A DNA stretch of 64,000 nt from Shigella phage ESh32. The notes under the pieces were generated by a model. The model was not told the origin of the DNA, made no database searches, and saw only the letters and a program-made list of their open reading frames with translations. The position numbers and the translations under genes were made by a program. The stretch lies in the sequence record ON528742. One strand, given 5' to 3'. Shown here piece after piece: positions 7,046-47,359 of the stretch (the stretch's first letter is position 1; every line of letters starts with the position of its first letter).

Positions 7046-7248
7046 TGATTAGTATAGAGCAAGCAGATAAAATCAAGGAATTAGTGGCTTCAATTCGTAA
7101 AGCAGATGAAGAGCTGATTGACTTTGCTTGGTATTCATCGGGTATTTCGAATAAAGGCATTAAAGACTTTGAAACTAAAGTGGATAATGCTTTAGAAGCG
7201 TTAGATATGTTTCTTGATGAAATTATCGATCATAATACGAGAGTTTAA
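7045..7248 (+). CDS. hypothetical small helical protein (tandem family member)
   Basis: ORF 7009..7248; ATG at 7045. Confidence 0.5.
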   Translation: MISIEQADKIKELVASIRKADEELIDFAWYSSGISNKGIKDFETKVDNALEALDMFLDEIIDHNTRV

Positions 7249-7250
7249 GT

Positions 7251-7445
7251 ATGCTAACACGTGAACAGTTTGAAAAAATCATTAAATTAGCACGTGATAT
7301 TGAAATAGATTCATACCAATTAGCAGTTGAGCATTGTGAAGGATATTCATACGACGGTATAGAAGCAGCTAAAAGAGATTTGGATAAATCCAAAGCTAAG
7401 TTAGTTCAATATCTTGAAATGATTAGGTGGAATAATGAAAACTGA
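7251..7445 (+). CDS. hypothetical small helical protein (tandem family member)
   Basis: 64-aa ORF MLTREQFEKIIKLARD... Confidence 0.5.
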   Translation: MLTREQFEKIIKLARDIEIDSYQLAVEHCEGYSYDGIEAAKRDLDKSKAKLVQYLEMIRWNNEN

Positions 7446-7608
7446 AAAGCAGATGTTTTTAATGAAGCTAATTGAAGAATATGCTAATGCAGTTTCTGAC
7501 TATGAGTATTCTGCTCGGGAAAGAGGTACGGCTTTCGCTAAAGAAGAATTGAAAATCATGGTTGATGCTCATACAAAGCTTCAGAATTTTATCGAAAACG
7601 TCATTTAA
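7435..7608 (+). CDS. hypothetical small helical protein (tandem family member)
   Basis: 57-codon ORF read from sequence: MKTEKQMFLMKLIEEYANAV... Confidence 0.4.
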   Translation: MKTEKQMFLMKLIEEYANAVSDYEYSARERGTAFAKEELKIMVDAHTKLQNFIENVI

Positions 7609-7610
7609 TG

Positions 7611-7640
7611 GTTTACAAGTTGGCAAGGTTATGGTATAGT
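7611..7640 (+). promoter_or_regulatory. T4-type early promoter
   Basis: gtttacaagttggcaaggttatggtatagt. Confidence 0.55.
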
Positions 7641-7668
7641 AATCTTGTCGACTGCCAAGGAGAAGAGA

Positions 7669-7773
7669 ATGAAAGTTTTGTTTGTTGTGTATGTGATGAT
7701 TCAATATAATTACCCAATGTTTACTTATAATTTGGTAAACAACATTATTGATATGATTCAGAGGAGTATGTAA
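7669..7773 (+). CDS. possible small hydrophobic peptide
   Basis: 34 codons with AAGGAG RBS after the promoter. Confidence 0.3.
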   Translation: MKVLFVVYVMIQYNYPMFTYNLVNNIIDMIQRSM

Positions 7774-7940
7774 TGACAAGTGAGCAGGCTTTTAAATTAA
7801 GAGAATTAATTGAGACGTATAGTAAAGCTGTTCATACATCAACAATTATTGATGAATCAGCTTTCTCCGGACATGCTAACAAGATTAAATACAAAACTCT
7901 TATGGAAGAAGCTAAAGTAAATCTTGATTCTTATATTTAA
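7773..7940 (+). CDS. hypothetical small helical protein (tandem family member)
   Basis: 55-codon ORF MTSEQAFKLRELIETYSKAV...; TAATG overlap. Confidence 0.4.
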   Translation: MTSEQAFKLRELIETYSKAVHTSTIIDESAFSGHANKIKYKTLMEEAKVNLDSYI

Positions 7941-7959
7941 ACTTTAATTGGTAAATAAT

Positions 7960-8502
7960 ATGAAAGCTGTAATTGAAACAACTGATTTGTTCGGTGACTT
8001 AGTTATCGAAAAACGCGGTAATGTATACGTTCTGACGCAGGAAGACGATAGTATTACTATTCTTCCTATGGAACTGGCTGCGATTTTATCTTATGCTCCC
8101 TCAGGAGTTACCGGTGTAACTAATATTACAGGTGACCTCCAAGTTCGTTTTTATCGTGGCCTTTACGGCGGTAATATTGAAACTGAATTTATGTGTCTTT
8201 CTATCAGCAATTGGGCAACATTCGTTGTCAAGGTGAAAGAATTCTTAGAATCTGAAACAGTCGAAACACCCGAAAAGGCTAAACTTCAATGGGCTAAAGA
8301 TCGCGGTGCTAACATTATTAATCCAGTAGCTGCAAATTATACTACGACTTTGGATGTCAAGACTTCTTATGAAGATGGCGATGTCGTACTTGTTCGCCAA
8401 AATGATGATTCTCGAGCACATATTGTCACATTTACCAAAGACGAAGCTATTGCGCTAAAGACTTATCTTGATTCTGTCATTCCAACTATGATTTCAAAGT
8501 GA
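7960..8502 (+). CDS. hypothetical protein (paralog of 8509..9030)
   Basis: ORF 7948..8502 (TTG at 7948); ATG at 7960; C-terminus ...EAIALKTYLDSVIPTMISK. Confidence 0.55.
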   Translation: MKAVIETTDLFGDLVIEKRGNVYVLTQEDDSITILPMELAAILSYAPSGVTGVTNITGDLQVRFYRGLYGGNIETEFMCLSISNWATFVVKVKEFLESETVETPEKAKLQWAKDRGANIINPVAANYTTTLDVKTSYEDGDVVLVRQNDDSRAHIVTFTKDEAIALKTYLDSVIPTMISK

Positions 8503-10618: not shown

Positions 10619-11587
10619 ATGAAAACTGTAACTATCAATAAGGGTATCTACTTCGGTAAAGAAATCTCTGGAACTTTTGAGCTCTTAGGCGAATGGTTCC
10701 CAGATAATGCTCCGGTAGATGCACAAGGAGATGGTAAAGTTTTTGTTGAAATTGACGGTAAACGTCGCGGTGTTTGGGTTTACAAATCAGACATTTCATA
10801 TGATGGTGTAAAAGTTGAAGAAGTTAAAGAATCATATGAAGATATGAAAACCCGCATTAATAAAAGATTTAATGTTATGGGAATGATGACGAATGGTATT
10901 ATTAACGGAAACATTCGTTCATTAATTATCTCTGGTGCGGCGGGTATTGGTAAAACGTATTCTTTAGATAAAGCTTTAAATAAAGCAAATGATATTGGAT
11001 ACATTGAATATAAAAGCATTAACGGTAAAATCTCCGGTATCGGTCTTTATGAGCAGCTTTGGAATAATCGTGAAGAGAATTCTGTCCTTTTGATTGATGA
11101 TGTGGATGTTTTCTCTGATATGGACATTCTTAATCTTCTGAAAGCTGCTCTGGACACCGGAGAGACCCGTAAAGTCTGCTGGAGCACCGCATCTTCTTAC
11201 TTAGAAGAAAAAGGCATTGAGCGTGAGTTTGAATTTAAAGGAACGATTGTTTTTATCACAAACGTTGACATTGACCGCGAATTAGACCGTGGTACTAAAC
11301 TTGCTCCACATTTACAAGCATTAGTGTCCCGCTCAGTTTATTTGGATTTGGGTGTTCACACTAATGAAGAAATTATGGTCAGGGTTGAAGATGTTATTCT
11401 TTCAACTGACATGATGCAAAAGCGCGGTCTTTCTGATGAAGAAACTTATAAAGCATTATCATGGATGAAAGTCAATGTTAATCGTTTACGCAATGTTTCA
11501 CTGCGTACTGCTCTTTATCTTGCTGACTTTATTATGACCGACAAAAACGGTTGGGAAGAAATTGCTGAAACGGTATTATTAAAATGA
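10619..11587 (+). CDS. AAA+/P-loop ATPase
   Basis: Walker A GAAGIGKTY, Walker B VLLIDDVD; ATG at 10619 after GGAG in the conserved leader. Confidence 0.65.
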   Translation: MKTVTINKGIYFGKEISGTFELLGEWFPDNAPVDAQGDGKVFVEIDGKRRGVWVYKSDISYDGVKVEEVKESYEDMKTRINKRFNVMGMMTNGIINGNIRSLIISGAAGIGKTYSLDKALNKANDIGYIEYKSINGKISGIGLYEQLWNNREENSVLLIDDVDVFSDMDILNLLKAALDTGETRKVCWSTASSYLEEKGIEREFEFKGTIVFITNVDIDRELDRGTKLAPHLQALVSRSVYLDLGVHTNEEIMVRVEDVILSTDMMQKRGLSDEETYKALSWMKVNVNRLRNVSLRTALYLADFIMTDKNGWEEIAETVLLK

Positions 11588-12303
11588 AAAAATATTTTAC
11601 TATCTATAAAACTGAAATATTAAATTTAAAGACAGGTATTAAGAAATACTATTATGGTCGACATATAACTAATAACATCAATGATTCGTATGTTGGTAGT
11701 GGAAATTATATAGAACGTGTAAAAGTGTCAAATGACCATATATTATCAAAAACGGTTTTAGAAGTTTTTGATAATTATGATAAAATGGTACAAGCCGAAA
11801 TATTATATATCATGGCAGGTAAATTGAAATATGGAAAAAACTGCGTTAACCTGTCATATGGGGGTGAAGGAGGAAAGGTTGCAGATGAAACTAGGATAAA
11901 ATGTAAAAAGCATTCTATAAATTTATGGAAAAATCCTAATCATATAGAGCATATGAAGAAAAAGATGAAAGAGGTCACATCCACGCCGGAAGCTAAATTA
12001 AACACTTCAATAAAAACTTCACAACGATATAAGGACCCAGCTTTTGTTAGAAAAGTTAGTAATATTATTAAAAAGACACTAAGCAATCCTACAGTAAAAG
12101 AAAAGCACATTAATGGAATTAAAGCTGCAAAGCGTTCTCATTTAACTATATGGCAGTATGAAGATGAATTATTCGAGCTTTGGAAAGAAACTAAATACGG
12201 ATGGAGAAAATTTACAAAGGAAGCTATAAAACACGGTTATCCAAATGAACCTTATCGTAGTATGGTATCAACTTTTCAGAAAAGACATTTAGAAGAATCG
12301 TAA
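11584..12303 (+). CDS. GIY-YIG family homing endonuclease-like protein (seg-like)
   Basis: N-terminal FTIYKTEILNLKTGIKKYYYGRH (GIY..YIG-like spacing, following Arg); basic C-terminal region. Confidence 0.6.
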   Translation: MKKYFTIYKTEILNLKTGIKKYYYGRHITNNINDSYVGSGNYIERVKVSNDHILSKTVLEVFDNYDKMVQAEILYIMAGKLKYGKNCVNLSYGGEGGKVADETRIKCKKHSINLWKNPNHIEHMKKKMKEVTSTPEAKLNTSIKTSQRYKDPAFVRKVSNIIKKTLSNPTVKEKHINGIKAAKRSHLTIWQYEDELFELWKETKYGWRKFTKEAIKHGYPNEPYRSMVSTFQKRHLEES

Positions 12304-27060: not shown

Positions 27061-28263
27061 ATGAAAGTATGTATTTTTATGGCTCGAGGTCTTGAAGGTT
27101 GTGGTGTAACAAAATTCTCACTCGAGCAACGTGATTGGTTTATTAAAAATGGTCATGAAGTGACTTTGGTTTATGCTAAAGATAAATCATTTACTCGTAA
27201 TTGCGCGCATGATTATAAATCATTTTCAATTCCGGTTTTATTGGCAAAAGAATACGATAAAACACTTAAGCTGGTAAATGATTGTGATATTCTAATTATC
27301 AATTCAGTTCCTGCTACTTCGGTTGAAGAAGACACTATTAATAACTATAAAAAAATTATTGATAACATTAAACCTTCTGTTCGTGTTGTAGTTTATCAGC
27401 ATGACCATTCTTCTCTTTCTTTGCGTCGAAATTTGGGATTAGAAGAAACTGTTCGTCGAGCTGATGTTATTTTTAGCCATTCTGATAATGGTGATTTTAA
27501 TAAAGTTCTGATGAAAGAATGGTATCCTGAAACAGTTTCTCTGTTTGATGATATTGAAGAAGCACCGACCGTATATAACTTTCAGCCTCCTATGGATATT
27601 GCGAAAGTTCGATCAACCTATTGGAAAGATGTTTCTGAAATTAATATGAATATCAACCGTTGGATTGGTCGTACGACTACATGGAAAGGTTTTTATCAGA
27701 TGTTTGATTTTCACGAAAAACATCTTAAACCTGCAGGACTAAGTACTATTATGGAAGGTCTGGAACGTTCTCCAGCGTTCATTCCTATTAAAGAAAAAGG
27801 AATTCCATACGAGTATTATCGTCTTCATCAAGTAGACCAAATTAAAATTGCTCCTAATTTGCCAACGCAAATTCTTGACCGTTATGTAAATAGCGAAATG
27901 CTTGAACGTATGAGTAAATCCGGTTTTGGTTATCAGTTGAGTAAGTTGGATAAAAAATATCTACAGCGCTCTTTAGAATATACTCATCTCGAGCTTGGTG
28001 CATGTGGAACAATTCCGGTATTTTGGAAATCTACTGGCGAAAATTTAAAATTCCGTGTTGATAATACTCCTTTGACCTCGCATGATAGCGGTATCATTTG
28101 GTTTGATGAAAATGATATGGAATCAACATTTGAACGTATTAAAGAACTGTCATCTGACCGAGCTCTTTATGACCGTGAGCGAGAAAAAGCATATGAATTT
28201 TTGTATCAGCACCAAGATTCAAGCTTCTGCTTTAAAGAACAGTTTGACATTATTACAAAATAA
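27061..28263 (+). CDS. a-gt: DNA alpha-glucosyltransferase
   Basis: 400 aa; matches remembered T4 alpha-gt (CIFMARGLEGCGVTKFSLEQRDWFIKNGHEVTLVYAKDKSF...). Confidence 0.9.
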   Translation: MKVCIFMARGLEGCGVTKFSLEQRDWFIKNGHEVTLVYAKDKSFTRNCAHDYKSFSIPVLLAKEYDKTLKLVNDCDILIINSVPATSVEEDTINNYKKIIDNIKPSVRVVVYQHDHSSLSLRRNLGLEETVRRADVIFSHSDNGDFNKVLMKEWYPETVSLFDDIEEAPTVYNFQPPMDIAKVRSTYWKDVSEINMNINRWIGRTTTWKGFYQMFDFHEKHLKPAGLSTIMEGLERSPAFIPIKEKGIPYEYYRLHQVDQIKIAPNLPTQILDRYVNSEMLERMSKSGFGYQLSKLDKKYLQRSLEYTHLELGACGTIPVFWKSTGENLKFRVDNTPLTSHDSGIIWFDENDMESTFERIKELSSDRALYDREREKAYEFLYQHQDSSFCFKEQFDIITK

Positions 28264-38512: not shown

Positions 38513-38764
38513 ATGGAAACTTTAGTAGCAGGTTCAATTTTTATGGTTTTAGTTTCAGGTGTGTTGGCTATTATTATATACATGCTTCCATGGTTCATTG
38601 CCTTGATGCGTGGGTCAAAATCGACAGTAGGAATCTTTTTCACATCTTTACTGTTTAACTGGTCAATTATTGGTTGGTTTATTACATTTATTTGGTCAAT
38701 TGCGGGTGAAACTAAAAAGTCTGCACAACCAAATCAGGTAATTATCATCAGAGAGAAGGAATGA
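38513..38764 (+). CDS. imm: superinfection immunity membrane protein Imm
   Basis: 83 aa, two TM segments, position between 43 and 42. Confidence 0.75.
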   Translation: METLVAGSIFMVLVSGVLAIIIYMLPWFIALMRGSKSTVGIFFTSLLFNWSIIGWFITFIWSIAGETKKSAQPNQVIIIREKE

Positions 38765-38910
38765 AAAGCAAAATTATAGCAGTGTTGCTTTTAATCTTGA
38801 TGATTATAATAAGTATATACTATAGTGTAACGGTTCCTCTTATGATTCCAACTATTATTTTAGGTTGGGGTTTATTACTGTTACAAGTTAAATATGAATG
38901 TATCAATTGA
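38761..38910 (+). CDS. possible small membrane protein
   Basis: 49 codons read from sequence; ATGA overlap with imm stop. Confidence 0.35.
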   Translation: MKSKIIAVLLLILMIIISIYYSVTVPLMIPTIILGWGLLLLQVKYECIN

Positions 38911-38917
38911 GGTTTAA

Positions 38918-39658
38918 ATGATTAGTGACTCTATGACAGTTGAAGAAATCCGTCTTCATTTGGGGCTTGCATTAAAAGAAAAAGATTTCGTAGTTGATAA
39001 AACTGGTGTTAAAACTATTGAAATTATTGGCGCATCATTTGTAGCAGATGAACCGTTTATTTTTGGCGCTCTTAATGATGAATACATTCAGCGTGAACTT
39101 GAATGGTATAAATCTAAGAGCTTGTTTGTTAAAGATATTCCAGGTGAAACACCAAAGATTTGGCAGCAGGTCGCATCTTCTAAAGGCGAAATTAATTCGA
39201 ATTACGGTTGGGCTATTTGGTCAGAAGATAACTACGCCCAGTATGATATGTGTTTAGCTGAACTTGGTCAAAACCCTGATTCTCGACGTGGTATTATGAT
39301 TTATACTCGTCCATCCATGCAATTTGACTACAATAAAGATGGTATGTCAGATTTCATGTGTACTAATACAGTACAGTACCTGATTCGTGATAAGAAAGTC
39401 AATGCAGTAGTAAGCATGCGCTCAAATGACGTGGTCTTCGGATTCCGTAATGATTATGCATGGCAAAAATACGTATTAGATAAATTAGTATTTGATTTGA
39501 ATGCCGGCGATTCAACTCGTCAGTATAAAGCAGGTTCTATTATATGGAATGTCGGAAGTCTTCATGTATATTCTCGTCATTTTTACTTGGTTGATCATTG
39601 GTGGAATACTGGCGAAACTCATATTGTGAAAAAAGACTATAAAGGTGAGTGGAAATGA
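38918..39658 (+). CDS. 42: dCMP hydroxymethylase gp42
   Basis: 246 aa; thymidylate-synthase-like fold; matches remembered T4 gp42. Confidence 0.9.
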   Translation: MISDSMTVEEIRLHLGLALKEKDFVVDKTGVKTIEIIGASFVADEPFIFGALNDEYIQRELEWYKSKSLFVKDIPGETPKIWQQVASSKGEINSNYGWAIWSEDNYAQYDMCLAELGQNPDSRRGIMIYTRPSMQFDYNKDGMSDFMCTNTVQYLIRDKKVNAVVSMRSNDVVFGFRNDYAWQKYVLDKLVFDLNAGDSTRQYKAGSIIWNVGSLHVYSRHFYLVDHWWNTGETHIVKKDYKGEWK

Positions 39659-40497
39659 TTCAATTCGTAATTCCAAGTTATCAGCGTGTCGGGGCAGTTT
39701 CTGCCCTTGATATGTTTCCGACTGATTATGAACCCCATATTGTAGTGCGTGAACATGAAGAAAAAGCTTATTATGATGCCTATGGGTCTAGAGCTAAAAT
39801 TATAACTATTCCTGATGATGTAAACGGAATTGCCGGTACTCGTAAAGCAATTACTGATATGTATGCAGGTCAACGAATCTGGATGATTGACGATGATACT
39901 ACTATTCGTATGAGTTCAATGCGAAAAAGAGATGACCGTCGTTGTGTGGATAAAGTCAATCAATTAACCCGTGAACAGTTCTATGAATTGATTCAATACG
40001 TCGAAGATGCCATGGATTGTGGGTATTATCACGGTCATGCTCGTCTACCTATTTTTAAAATTACTTCATCTTGGGGTAATTATCGTGAAAATTCATATGG
40101 ATTCACGAATACATGGTATGACCTCGGAAAACTTACTACAGAACAAATTGGGTATGGAAAAATTGATTTGTGCGAAGATATGTATGCATTTCTCAATTTA
40201 ATTAATCAAGGTTATCCGCATTTGGCCTTGTTCAAATATCTGGTTGTATCTGGAAAAGCACAAGCTCCTGGCGGGTGCAGTTCAATTCGTAGTAATTCTA
40301 AACATAATAGAGCGCTTGAGCAAATCAATAGAGAGTTTCCAGAGCAAGCTCGTTGGAAAACTTCTAATATTGAAAAACGAAAATCGTTGGGTGAAGAAGA
40401 CGAGCCATTAAAGGTTCTTCGCATGTGTGTTTCGCGCAAAGAAAAATCAGAAGCATTTCATAAGTTTAATGCTATTCATCCGATAGCAGTTGATTAA
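39649..40497 (+). CDS. GT-A fold glycosyltransferase at the beta-gt locus
   Basis: DxD motif WMIDDDT; unrelated to remembered T4 beta-gt sequence. Confidence 0.6.
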   Translation: MEMIQFVIPSYQRVGAVSALDMFPTDYEPHIVVREHEEKAYYDAYGSRAKIITIPDDVNGIAGTRKAITDMYAGQRIWMIDDDTTIRMSSMRKRDDRRCVDKVNQLTREQFYELIQYVEDAMDCGYYHGHARLPIFKITSSWGNYRENSYGFTNTWYDLGKLTTEQIGYGKIDLCEDMYAFLNLINQGYPHLALFKYLVVSGKAQAPGGCSSIRSNSKHNRALEQINREFPEQARWKTSNIEKRKSLGEEDEPLKVLRMCVSRKEKSEAFHKFNAIHPIAVD

Positions 40498-40574: not shown

Positions 40575-41756
40575 ATGTCTATTGCAGATTTAAAATCCCG
40601 TTTGATTAAAGCTTCAACTTCTAAAATGACTGCTGAACTGACTACATCTAAATTCTTTAATGAAAAGGATGTAATCCGTACAAAAATCCCAATGCTTAAT
40701 ATTGCTATTTCTGGTGCGATTGATGGCGGCATGCAGTCTGGTTTAACTATTTTCGCAGGGCCTTCTAAACACTTTAAATCAAATATGTCTTTGACTATGG
40801 TTGCGGCATATTTGAACAAATATCCTGACGCGGTTTGTCTATTCTATGATAGCGAATTTGGTATCACTCCAGCTTATTTGCGATCTATGGGAGTTGACCC
40901 GGAACGAGTAATTCATACACCAATCCAGTCAGTTGAACAGCTGAAAATTGATATGGTGAACCAGCTTGAAGCTATTGAGCGTGGTGAAAAGGTTATTGTA
41001 TTCATCGACTCAATTGGTAATATGGCTTCTAAGAAAGAAACGGAAGATGCCTTGAATGAAAAATCTGTGGCAGATATGACTCGTGCTAAATCACTGAAGT
41101 CATTATTCCGTATTGTTACTCCTTACTTTAGCATTAAAAATATTCCATGTGTTGCGGTTAACCATACAATTGAAACAATTGAAATGTTTAGTAAAACCGT
41201 GATGACAGGCGGTACAGGCGTAATGTATTCGGCTGATACTGTATTCATTATCGGTAAACGTCAGATTAAAGATGGTTCTGATCTTCAGGGATATCAATTT
41301 GTTCTAAATGTAGAAAAATCTCGTACCGTTAAAGAAAAAAGTAAATTCTTTATTGATGTTAAATTTGACGGTGGTATCGATCCTTATTCTGGATTGTTAG
41401 ATATGGCTCTAGAATTAGGATTTGTAGTAAAACCTAAAAATGGCTGGTATGCTCGTGAATTTCTTGACGAAGAAACCGGTGAGATGATTCGCGAAGAAAA
41501 ATCTTGGCGTGCAAAAGATACCAACTGCACTACATTCTGGGGTCCTTTATTTAAGCATCAACCATTCCGAGATGCTATTAAACGTGCTTATCAGTTAGGT
41601 GCTATTGATAGTAATGAAATTGTTGAAGCTGAAGTTGATGAATTGATTAACTCAAAGGTTGAAAAATTTAAATCTCCAGAAAGTAAAAGTAAATCAGCAG
41701 CTGATTTAGAAACTGACCTCGAGCAGTTAAGTGATATGGAAGAATTTAATGAATAA
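40575..41756 (+). CDS. uvsX: RecA-like recombinase UvsX
   Basis: 393 aa; Walker A GPSKHFKS; matches remembered T4 UvsX. Confidence 0.95.
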   Translation: MSIADLKSRLIKASTSKMTAELTTSKFFNEKDVIRTKIPMLNIAISGAIDGGMQSGLTIFAGPSKHFKSNMSLTMVAAYLNKYPDAVCLFYDSEFGITPAYLRSMGVDPERVIHTPIQSVEQLKIDMVNQLEAIERGEKVIVFIDSIGNMASKKETEDALNEKSVADMTRAKSLKSLFRIVTPYFSIKNIPCVAVNHTIETIEMFSKTVMTGGTGVMYSADTVFIIGKRQIKDGSDLQGYQFVLNVEKSRTVKEKSKFFIDVKFDGGIDPYSGLLDMALELGFVVKPKNGWYAREFLDEETGEMIREEKSWRAKDTNCTTFWGPLFKHQPFRDAIKRAYQLGAIDSNEIVEAEVDELINSKVEKFKSPESKSKSAADLETDLEQLSDMEEFNE

Positions 41757-46840: not shown

Positions 46841-47359
46841 ATGGCTTACTTTAACGAATGTTCACAACTGATTGAAGGCGCTGATAAAGCTCAAAATGAA
46901 TATTGGGATATTCTCGGTGATGAAAAAGACCCGCTGCAGGTAATGCTCGATATGCAGAAATCTCTGCAAGTTCGTTTAGCTAAAGATAAACCTGAATATA
47001 ATCGTCATCCTGATGACTTGGCTACTGCAGGTGAAGTTGTTGATTGGTTGCGTAATCAGAAAGATTATATTGACGATGAATTCCGTGAACTTCTGACTTC
47101 TCTTGGTGGTATGAGCAATGGTGAAAAAGATGCATCTGCTGTATGGAAACCTTGGAAGTCGCAGCATGGTGAACGTCGTGAAACTCTGATTACTGATTTG
47201 TCTCCACAAGACCAATTGGAAATTAAATTTGAAATGATTGATATTCTCCATTTCGTTCTGAACATGTTCCAAGGTCTTGGTCTTACAGCAGAAGAAATCT
47301 TTAAACTTTATTATCTAAAAAATGCCGAAAACTTTGCTCGTCAAGACCGAGGTTATTAA
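46841..47359 (+). CDS. 56: dCTPase/dCDPase gp56 (MazG-like)
   Basis: ORF 46748..47359; ATG at 46841 gives 172 aa MAYFNECSQLIEGADKAQNEYWDILGDEKDPLQ... Confidence 0.85.
   Translation: MAYFNECSQLIEGADKAQNEYWDILGDEKDPLQVMLDMQKSLQVRLAKDKPEYNRHPDDLATAGEVVDWLRNQKDYIDDEFRELLTSLGGMSNGEKDASAVWKPWKSQHGERRETLITDLSPQDQLEIKFEMIDILHFVLNMFQGLGLTAEEIFKLYYLKNAENFARQDRGY

Follow-up and report, generated by a model that had tools for sequence, protein, structure and literature searches.

Which enzyme does Shigella phage ESh32 carry between gene 42 and uvsX, the slot that beta-gt occupies in relatives, and what would it do to the hydroxymethylcytosine (hmC) in the phage DNA? An earlier note, made from the letters of a 64,000-nucleotide stretch of the genome (record ON528742; hereafter the window), had described a 282-aa open reading frame with the motif WMIDDDT in this position, and such a frame is indeed present at 39649..40497 (+). 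The figure of 282 aa is a mechanical count from the GTG at 39649, which is only the first possible start. The gene, which we refer to as TAGT, more likely begins at the ATG at 39655: (i) this ATG is the start in every annotated ortholog (MIQFVIPSY..., 280 aa), (ii) it shares the sequence ATGA with the TGA stop codon of gene 42, and (iii) a Shine-Dalgarno-like sequence, GGTGAG, ends 5 nt upstream of it. The order gene 42, TAGT, uvsX is common to the window, T2, T6 and phages QOTSP and EL. In the ESh32 window TAGT stands alone in the interval, whereas T4 has b-gt and the homing endonuclease gene segA there. A scan for sigma-70 promoters around TAGT returned 15 sites compared with 13.8 expected from shuffled sequence, and no promoter is claimed. 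The features discussed below are collected in Table 1.

Table 1 Features of the ESh32 window bearing on hmC synthesis and glucosylation, with the evidence for each.
Feature	Coordinates	Strand	Evidence
alpha-gt, DNA alpha-glucosyltransferase, which makes alpha-glucosyl-hmC, the acceptor of TAGT	27061..28263	+	PDB 1xv5, E = 5.6e-258, full length
gene 42, dCMP hydroxymethylase, maker of the hmC precursor	38918..39658	+	96.7% identical to T4 gp42; thymidylate-synthase superfamily
Predicted RNA hairpin pairing the GGUGAG Shine-Dalgarno-like sequence and the TAGT AUG	39644..39682	+	Folding
ba-gt / g-gt / TAGT, beta-glucosyl-HMC-alpha-glucosyltransferase	39655..40497	+	280 aa; family profiles and identity to T2, T6 and QOTSP proteins
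IPSYQR, codons 6-11, N-terminal motif after beta1	39670..39687	+	I6, P7, S8, Y9 and R11 invariant; T2 has H11
GGGGCAG-TTT-CTGCCCT hairpin, TAGT codons 13-18	39691..39707	+	Folding and ortholog codon comparison
DxD motif (here DDD), codons D79-D80-D81, loop after strand beta4	39889..39897	+	Invariant in alignment
CED, codons E174-D175	40174..40179	+	D175 invariant, E174 nearly so in alignment
uvsX, downstream neighbour, edge of the slot	40575..41756	+	ORF list and 10-kb nucleotide comparison
gene 56, dCTPase/dUTPase, clears dCTP so that hmdCTP is incorporated	46841..47359	+	tblastn with T4 gp56: 73% identity, E = 4e-84

The encoded protein matches PHROG 842, "beta-glucosyl-HMC-alpha-glucosyltransferase", with E = 2.2e-89, and the Pfam family PF20691 (TET-associated glycosyltransferase, TAGT) with 38.9 bits (gathering score 27.5) over 205 of 205 profile positions; neither TAGT nor alpha-gt is represented by an NCBIfam model. 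It is identical to the T2 protein at 278 of 280 positions, in two independent T2 records, to the T6 protein at 276 of 280 and to the QOTSP protein at 279 of 280, the single substitution in the last case being D24N. The T2/T6-type enzyme that had been predicted for this locus is thus borne out by the identity to both. The ESh32 gene also shares with T2 and T6 ba-gt its length, its place in the gene 42-uvsX interval and its partner, alpha-gt. The differences are confined to R11 and P251 in the window, which are H11 and S251 in T2, and to Y40, D55 and R106, which are N, G and H in T6, and the ESh32 gene has neither of the lesions that occur in two T6 records (codon 10 changed to TAG in one, D79 deleted in the other). 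On the basis of these comparisons, the gene almost certainly encodes an intact beta-glucosyl-HMC-alpha-glucosyltransferase of the T2/T6 type (ba-gt, g-gt, TAGT).

Homologs of TAGT were detected by tblastn in 688 of 50,697 phage records, and 471 of the 688 hold a copy with at least 95% identity, most of them annotated as beta-glucosyl-HMC-alpha-glucosyltransferase. At the nucleotide level, the 10 kb surrounding the gene matches wV7, RB51 and RB68 with ~98% identity, and the window is accordingly that of an ordinary Tequatrovirus. The finding itself is not new: the literature already covers the DNA glucosyltransferase of T2 and T6, its Pfam family, its GT-A fold, its prevalence, the synteny with T4 beta-gt and the effects on defence. 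Biochemical knowledge of TAGT dates back to the early 1960s, and the T2 and T6 genes were reportedly first cloned by Winkler and Rueger (Nucleic Acids Res, 1993). The synteny of TAGT with the position of T4 beta-GT was stated in a 2026 paper (PMC13390438), its GT-A fold has been reported (PMC13216743), and the pairing of alpha-GT with TAGT is known to be the common one, that of alpha-GT with beta-GT, as in T4, being rare (PMC13390438, PMC13216743).

By sequence, TAGT does not resemble the enzyme that fills the same slot in T4. BLASTP of the window protein against T4 b-gt gave a best E of 2.2; phmmer against all PDB chains, T4 b-gt and alpha-gt included, gave nothing at E <=1 and two chance matches at E > 1; and when the entire 64-kb window was searched by tblastn with T4 b-gt, the best E was 1.5, with no beta-gt homolog there. 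The statement in the earlier note that the protein does not resemble T4 beta-gt therefore stands. Because no relative of known structure could be identified by sequence, we examined the fold through a model predicted from an alignment of nine homologs spanning 99% to 32% identity. The model has a mean pLDDT of 69.9 and a pTM of 0.72. Residues 1-80 score 84-95, and residues 126-151, 203-211 and 261-280 fall below 50, so that the C-terminal half is of low confidence. In the model, the protein forms a single Rossmann-like alpha/beta/alpha domain resembling solved GT-A enzymes, not the two-domain GT-B fold, and the DxD motif lies in the loop after the fourth strand, with D79-D81 following strand E74-77 (block pLDDT 87). 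The modeled fold, together with the invariant DDD after strand beta4, agrees with the GT-A (DxD) glycosyltransferase originally proposed for the locus.

TAGT and T4 b-gt thus have in common a slot downstream of gene 42, UDP-glucose as the donor, a beta linkage, and phage DNA after replication as the substrate. They differ in sequence, to the point of having no similarity, in fold (GT-B for b-gt (PMC13216743), GT-A for TAGT), and in acceptor, which is bare hmC for b-gt and alpha-glucosyl-hmC for TAGT. Cellular GT-A enzymes of the GT2 family (BcsA, K4CP, TarP, GlfT2) are only 10-16% identical to TAGT, which, unlike them, is free of membrane or polymerase domains and has a DNA-linked sugar as its acceptor. 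Donor specificity varies widely among GT-A enzymes, and the fold alone leaves the sugar unfixed; transfer of a sugar other than glucose, such as arabinose as in RB69-type phages, was considered on these grounds. We regard it as exceedingly improbable, given that gentiobiose is the known product of the 99% identical enzymes of T2, T6 and QOTSP (PMC13390438; PMC6024577; PMC11078745) and that arabinosylation is a trait of Mosigviruses, whose transferases are different and which carry a cluster of sugar-precursor genes (PMC13390438).

Across the nine-homolog alignment, the window protein retains the consensus residue at every invariant column, including the DDD and R11. Inactivation of TAGT as a pseudogene was also considered and was rejected, the frame having neither a frameshift nor a stop codon and the consensus residues being in place. 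The DDD is predicted to bind a divalent metal and the diphosphate of UDP, and it is this DxD motif that suggests a metal-dependent enzyme. The IPSYQR motif presumably resembles the "PxYN" nucleotide-binding motif of GT2 enzymes. E174/D175 are candidates for the catalytic base on the model of the "ED" motif found in inverting GT2 enzymes, and likeness to the mostly inverting GT2 enzymes would fit the formation of a beta linkage from UDP-alpha-glucose.

Genes for the preceding steps of the pathway also lie in the window. The alpha-gt, which had been described as intact, is so: it spans 400 aa and matches PDB 1xv5 over its full length (Table 1). It is 100% identical (400/400) to that of QOTSP, 99.5% to that of T2, 92% to that of T6, 91.5% to that of T4 and ~92% to that of EL. 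With alpha-gt present and beta-gt absent, the 64-kb window of this ~167 kb genome has the hmC-glucosyltransferase genes of the T2/T6 type. Gene 56 is a locally divergent allele; its product is 73% identical to that of T4, compared with 92-97% for the neighbouring replication genes. A homolog of dam was not detected in the window by tblastn, as in the QOTSP group and T6.

In the proposed pathway, gp56 would remove dCTP from the pool while gp42 makes hmdCMP, and the polymerase would then place hmC in the phage DNA. Alpha-gt would move glucose from host UDP-glucose onto ~75% of the hmC in alpha linkage, and TAGT, acting as a metal-dependent, inverting GT-A enzyme, would add a beta-1,6-linked glucose, again from UDP-glucose, to yield gentiobiosyl-hmC. 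As TAGT would be inactive on bare hmC, 1/4 to 1/3 of the hmC would remain unglucosylated and beta-glucosyl-hmC would not be made. The addition by TAGT of a beta-linked second glucose to alpha-glucosyl-hmC has been described (PMC6024577; bioRxiv 10.64898/2026.02.25.707755; PMC13216743), and T2 and T6 are without b-gt (bioRxiv 10.64898/2026.02.25.707755; PMC6024577; PMC13216743; PMC11078745). In T2, 70% of hmC is alpha-glucosylated and 5% gentiobiosylated, and in T6 the corresponding values are 3% and 72% (bioRxiv 10.64898/2026.02.25.707755; PMC6024577; PMC11078745), with ~25% bare hmC in both (bioRxiv 10.64898/2026.02.25.707755; PMC6024577; PMC13216743; PMC11078745).

The shared slot raises the question of whether TAGT instead replaces T4 beta-gt and glucosylates bare hmC at sites beyond the reach of alpha-gt. 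The existence of phages with a TAGT homolog and neither alpha-GT nor beta-GT points in the same direction, in that other acceptors may exist (PMC13216743). However, T2, T6 and the Durham Tequatroviruses, whose enzymes are 97-99% identical, retain 25-33% bare hmC, and beta-glucosyl-hmC is undetectable in all of them (bioRxiv 10.64898/2026.02.25.707755; PMC13390438). Moreover, TAGT and b-gt stand side by side in phage CC31, so one does not simply take the place of the other. We consider replacement of beta-gt very improbable and retain alpha-glucosyl-hmC as the acceptor.

The closest guide to the product in ESh32 is Escherichia phage vB_Eco_QOTSP (OY720014). In a comparison covering TAGT, alpha-gt and the surrounding 10 kb, QOTSP has the same gene order, the same alpha-gt (400/400), a TAGT identical at 279 of 280 residues (D24N being the difference), and 97.4% nucleotide identity over the 10 kb. 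HPLC-MS of QOTSP virion DNA gave ~1/3 hmdC, ~2/3 gentiobiosyl-mdC, and low (background) alpha-glucosyl-mdC (PMC13390438). The glucosyl-alpha-glucosyl chemistry anticipated for ESh32, that is, beta-1,6-linked gentiobiosyl-hmC, has thus been measured with a near-identical enzyme pair (PMC13390438). Because the alpha-gt/TAGT pair of the window is essentially that of QOTSP, we infer that ESh32 virion DNA is T6-like, with mostly gentiobiosyl-hmC, rather than T2-like, with mostly mono-alpha-glucosyl-hmC. The expected composition is mostly gentiobiosyl-hmC, ~1/4-1/3 bare hmC and no beta-glucosyl-hmC.

The level of gentiobiosylation is not readable from sequence alone, being 5% in T2, ~40% in EL and ~2/3-72% in T6 and QOTSP, with enzymes that are all at least 97% identical (PMC13390438). 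ESh32 could accordingly possess a TAGT that is present but of low yield, as in T2, leaving mainly mono-alpha-glucosyl-hmC with a few percent of gentiobiosyl-hmC. The alpha-gt of the window is the T2 allele (99.5% identical), and its TAGT matches at 278/280 residues that of T2, which is reported at only 5% gentiobiosyl-hmC. Nevertheless, QOTSP, whose alpha-gt allele is the same and whose TAGT departs from that of the window only by D24N, gave ~2/3 gentiobiosyl-hmC (PMC13390438), and the two T2 substitutions, R11H and P251S, fall in an invariant and a nearly invariant column, at both of which the window has the consensus residue. A T2-like yield is therefore unlikely, and T6-like DNA remains our prediction.

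These two substitutions, of which R11H lies in the invariant IPSYxR motif, are the only differences between the window TAGT and that of T2 (AP018813, 7283-8125; LC348380, 2295-3137). In both the window and QOTSP, the alpha-gt is of the T2 type and the TAGT has the consensus residues; as QOTSP is ~2/3 gentiobiosylated (PMC13390438), the two substitutions bear on the 60-year-old gap between T2 (5%) and T6 (72%) in gentiobiosyl-hmC. Since T2 and QOTSP share the alpha-gt allele, a hypomorphic TAGT is a plausible source of the low level in T2. We offer tentatively, with somewhat less than an even chance of its being right, the explanation that R11H and P251S in T2 TAGT, and not the alpha-gt allele, set this gap. 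The alpha-gt sequences fall into two allele groups ~8% apart, one of the window, T2 and QOTSP (99.5-100% identical) and the other of T4, T6 and EL (99-99.5%), and alleles of alpha-gt and TAGT have thus been reassorted among the Tequatroviruses.

Both complete T6 records have a lesion in TAGT, each a different one. In MH550421 (4950-4955 region), codon 10 is changed from CAG to TAG, and the annotated CDS, of 261 aa, begins at an ATG farther downstream. In AP018814 (CDS 7135-7974), a 3-nt deletion at codon 79 removes one D of the invariant DDD. Either mutation of the stocks or errors in sequencing could account for these lesions. In a supE host, amber is read as Gln, which at T6 codon 10 would restore the wild-type protein.

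That glycosylation changes sensitivity to host defence, as the earlier note had expected, is documented for Brig1 (PMC11078745) and BapA (bioRxiv 10.64898/2026.02.25.707755). Enzymes that recognize alpha-glucosyl-hmC specifically, for instance the glycosylase Brig1 and the glucosidase BapA, would be blocked by the second sugar. In vitro, T6 DNA is resistant to Brig1 and T6 delta-ba-gt DNA is not, and the mutant is more sensitive in vivo (PMC11078745). Similarly, BapA releases no glucose from T6 DNA, which bears gentiobiosyl-hmC, but does so from T6 delta-g-gt DNA (bioRxiv 10.64898/2026.02.25.707755). Gentiobiosyl-hmC is itself targeted by GmrSD (PMC13216743), and Brig3 acts on the remaining bare hmC (bioRxiv 10.64898/2026.02.25.707755). 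For CRISPR, no test against gentiobiosyl-hmC specifically was found in the papers cited here. Packaged ESh32 DNA should thus be resistant to BapA and, in vitro, to Brig1. The phage should stay sensitive to GmrSD-family type IV enzymes and, because bare hmC remains, to 5hmC-specific glycosylases such as Brig3. The assignment is of use for annotation and phenotype prediction, for example in choosing phages for therapy or for assays of defence systems, and opens no new question.

The junction of gene 42 and TAGT is predicted to fold stably as RNA (z = -4.2 for 39630-39720), with two adjacent hairpins between 39644 and 39716. The first pairs the ribosome-binding site and start codon of TAGT (Table 1), and it was not recovered in the ortholog from a Klebsiella phage. 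Together with the ATGA overlap, this hairpin suggests that translation of TAGT may be coupled to that of gene 42. The stem of the hairpin at codons 13-18 includes the fourfold-degenerate codons GGG, GCA and GCC, which are fixed in 19/19, 19/19 and 20/21 orthologs, respectively; the loop varies. Codons 9-17 give the lowest synonymous entropy of any 6-codon window in the gene (0.47, compared with a mean of 0.92), other windows reaching 0.49-0.53. The hairpin shows no covariation and is missing in the two most divergent orthologs, so that its conservation at synonymous sites is suggestive rather than decisive. It is the only terminator-like site inside TAGT, and we do not call it a terminator. 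The junction hairpins may time or limit translation of TAGT; if so, they would determine how long replicating DNA bears the alpha-glucose alone and stays sensitive to Brig1.

Several further observations concern other phages and the remainder of the window. In CC31 (Karamvirus, GU323318, 1501-3410), a TAGT homolog (66% identical) and b-gt lie in tandem in the interval bounded by gene 42 and uvsX; there is thus room for both enzymes in the slot, and the partner of TAGT in this phage is b-gt rather than alpha-gt. In the 171.9-kb viral contig IMGVR_UViG_2974573174_000001 (from 1501), the TAGT frame stops after 49 codons and tblastn similarity continues to residue 276, apparently reflecting either a natural pseudogene or a frameshift error. 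Compared with T4, the window is without dam and, by alpha-gt, without mobB (tblastn E >=0.5 for both), and without segA between gene 42 and uvsX. Scans of positions 1-64000 for Rfam families and tRNAs gave no family at the gathering score, no tRNA genes and no group I intron. A GIY-YIG-like seg homolog lies elsewhere, in the ORF at 11584..12303, which is the only match in the window to SegA (E = 9e-10) or SegF (1e-7). Finally, a strongly hydrophobic 49-aa ORF lies between imm and gene 42 (38761-38910); the QOTSP and EL annotations list it as "Phage protein", and the T4, T2 and T6 records have an unannotated gap of the same size at this position.
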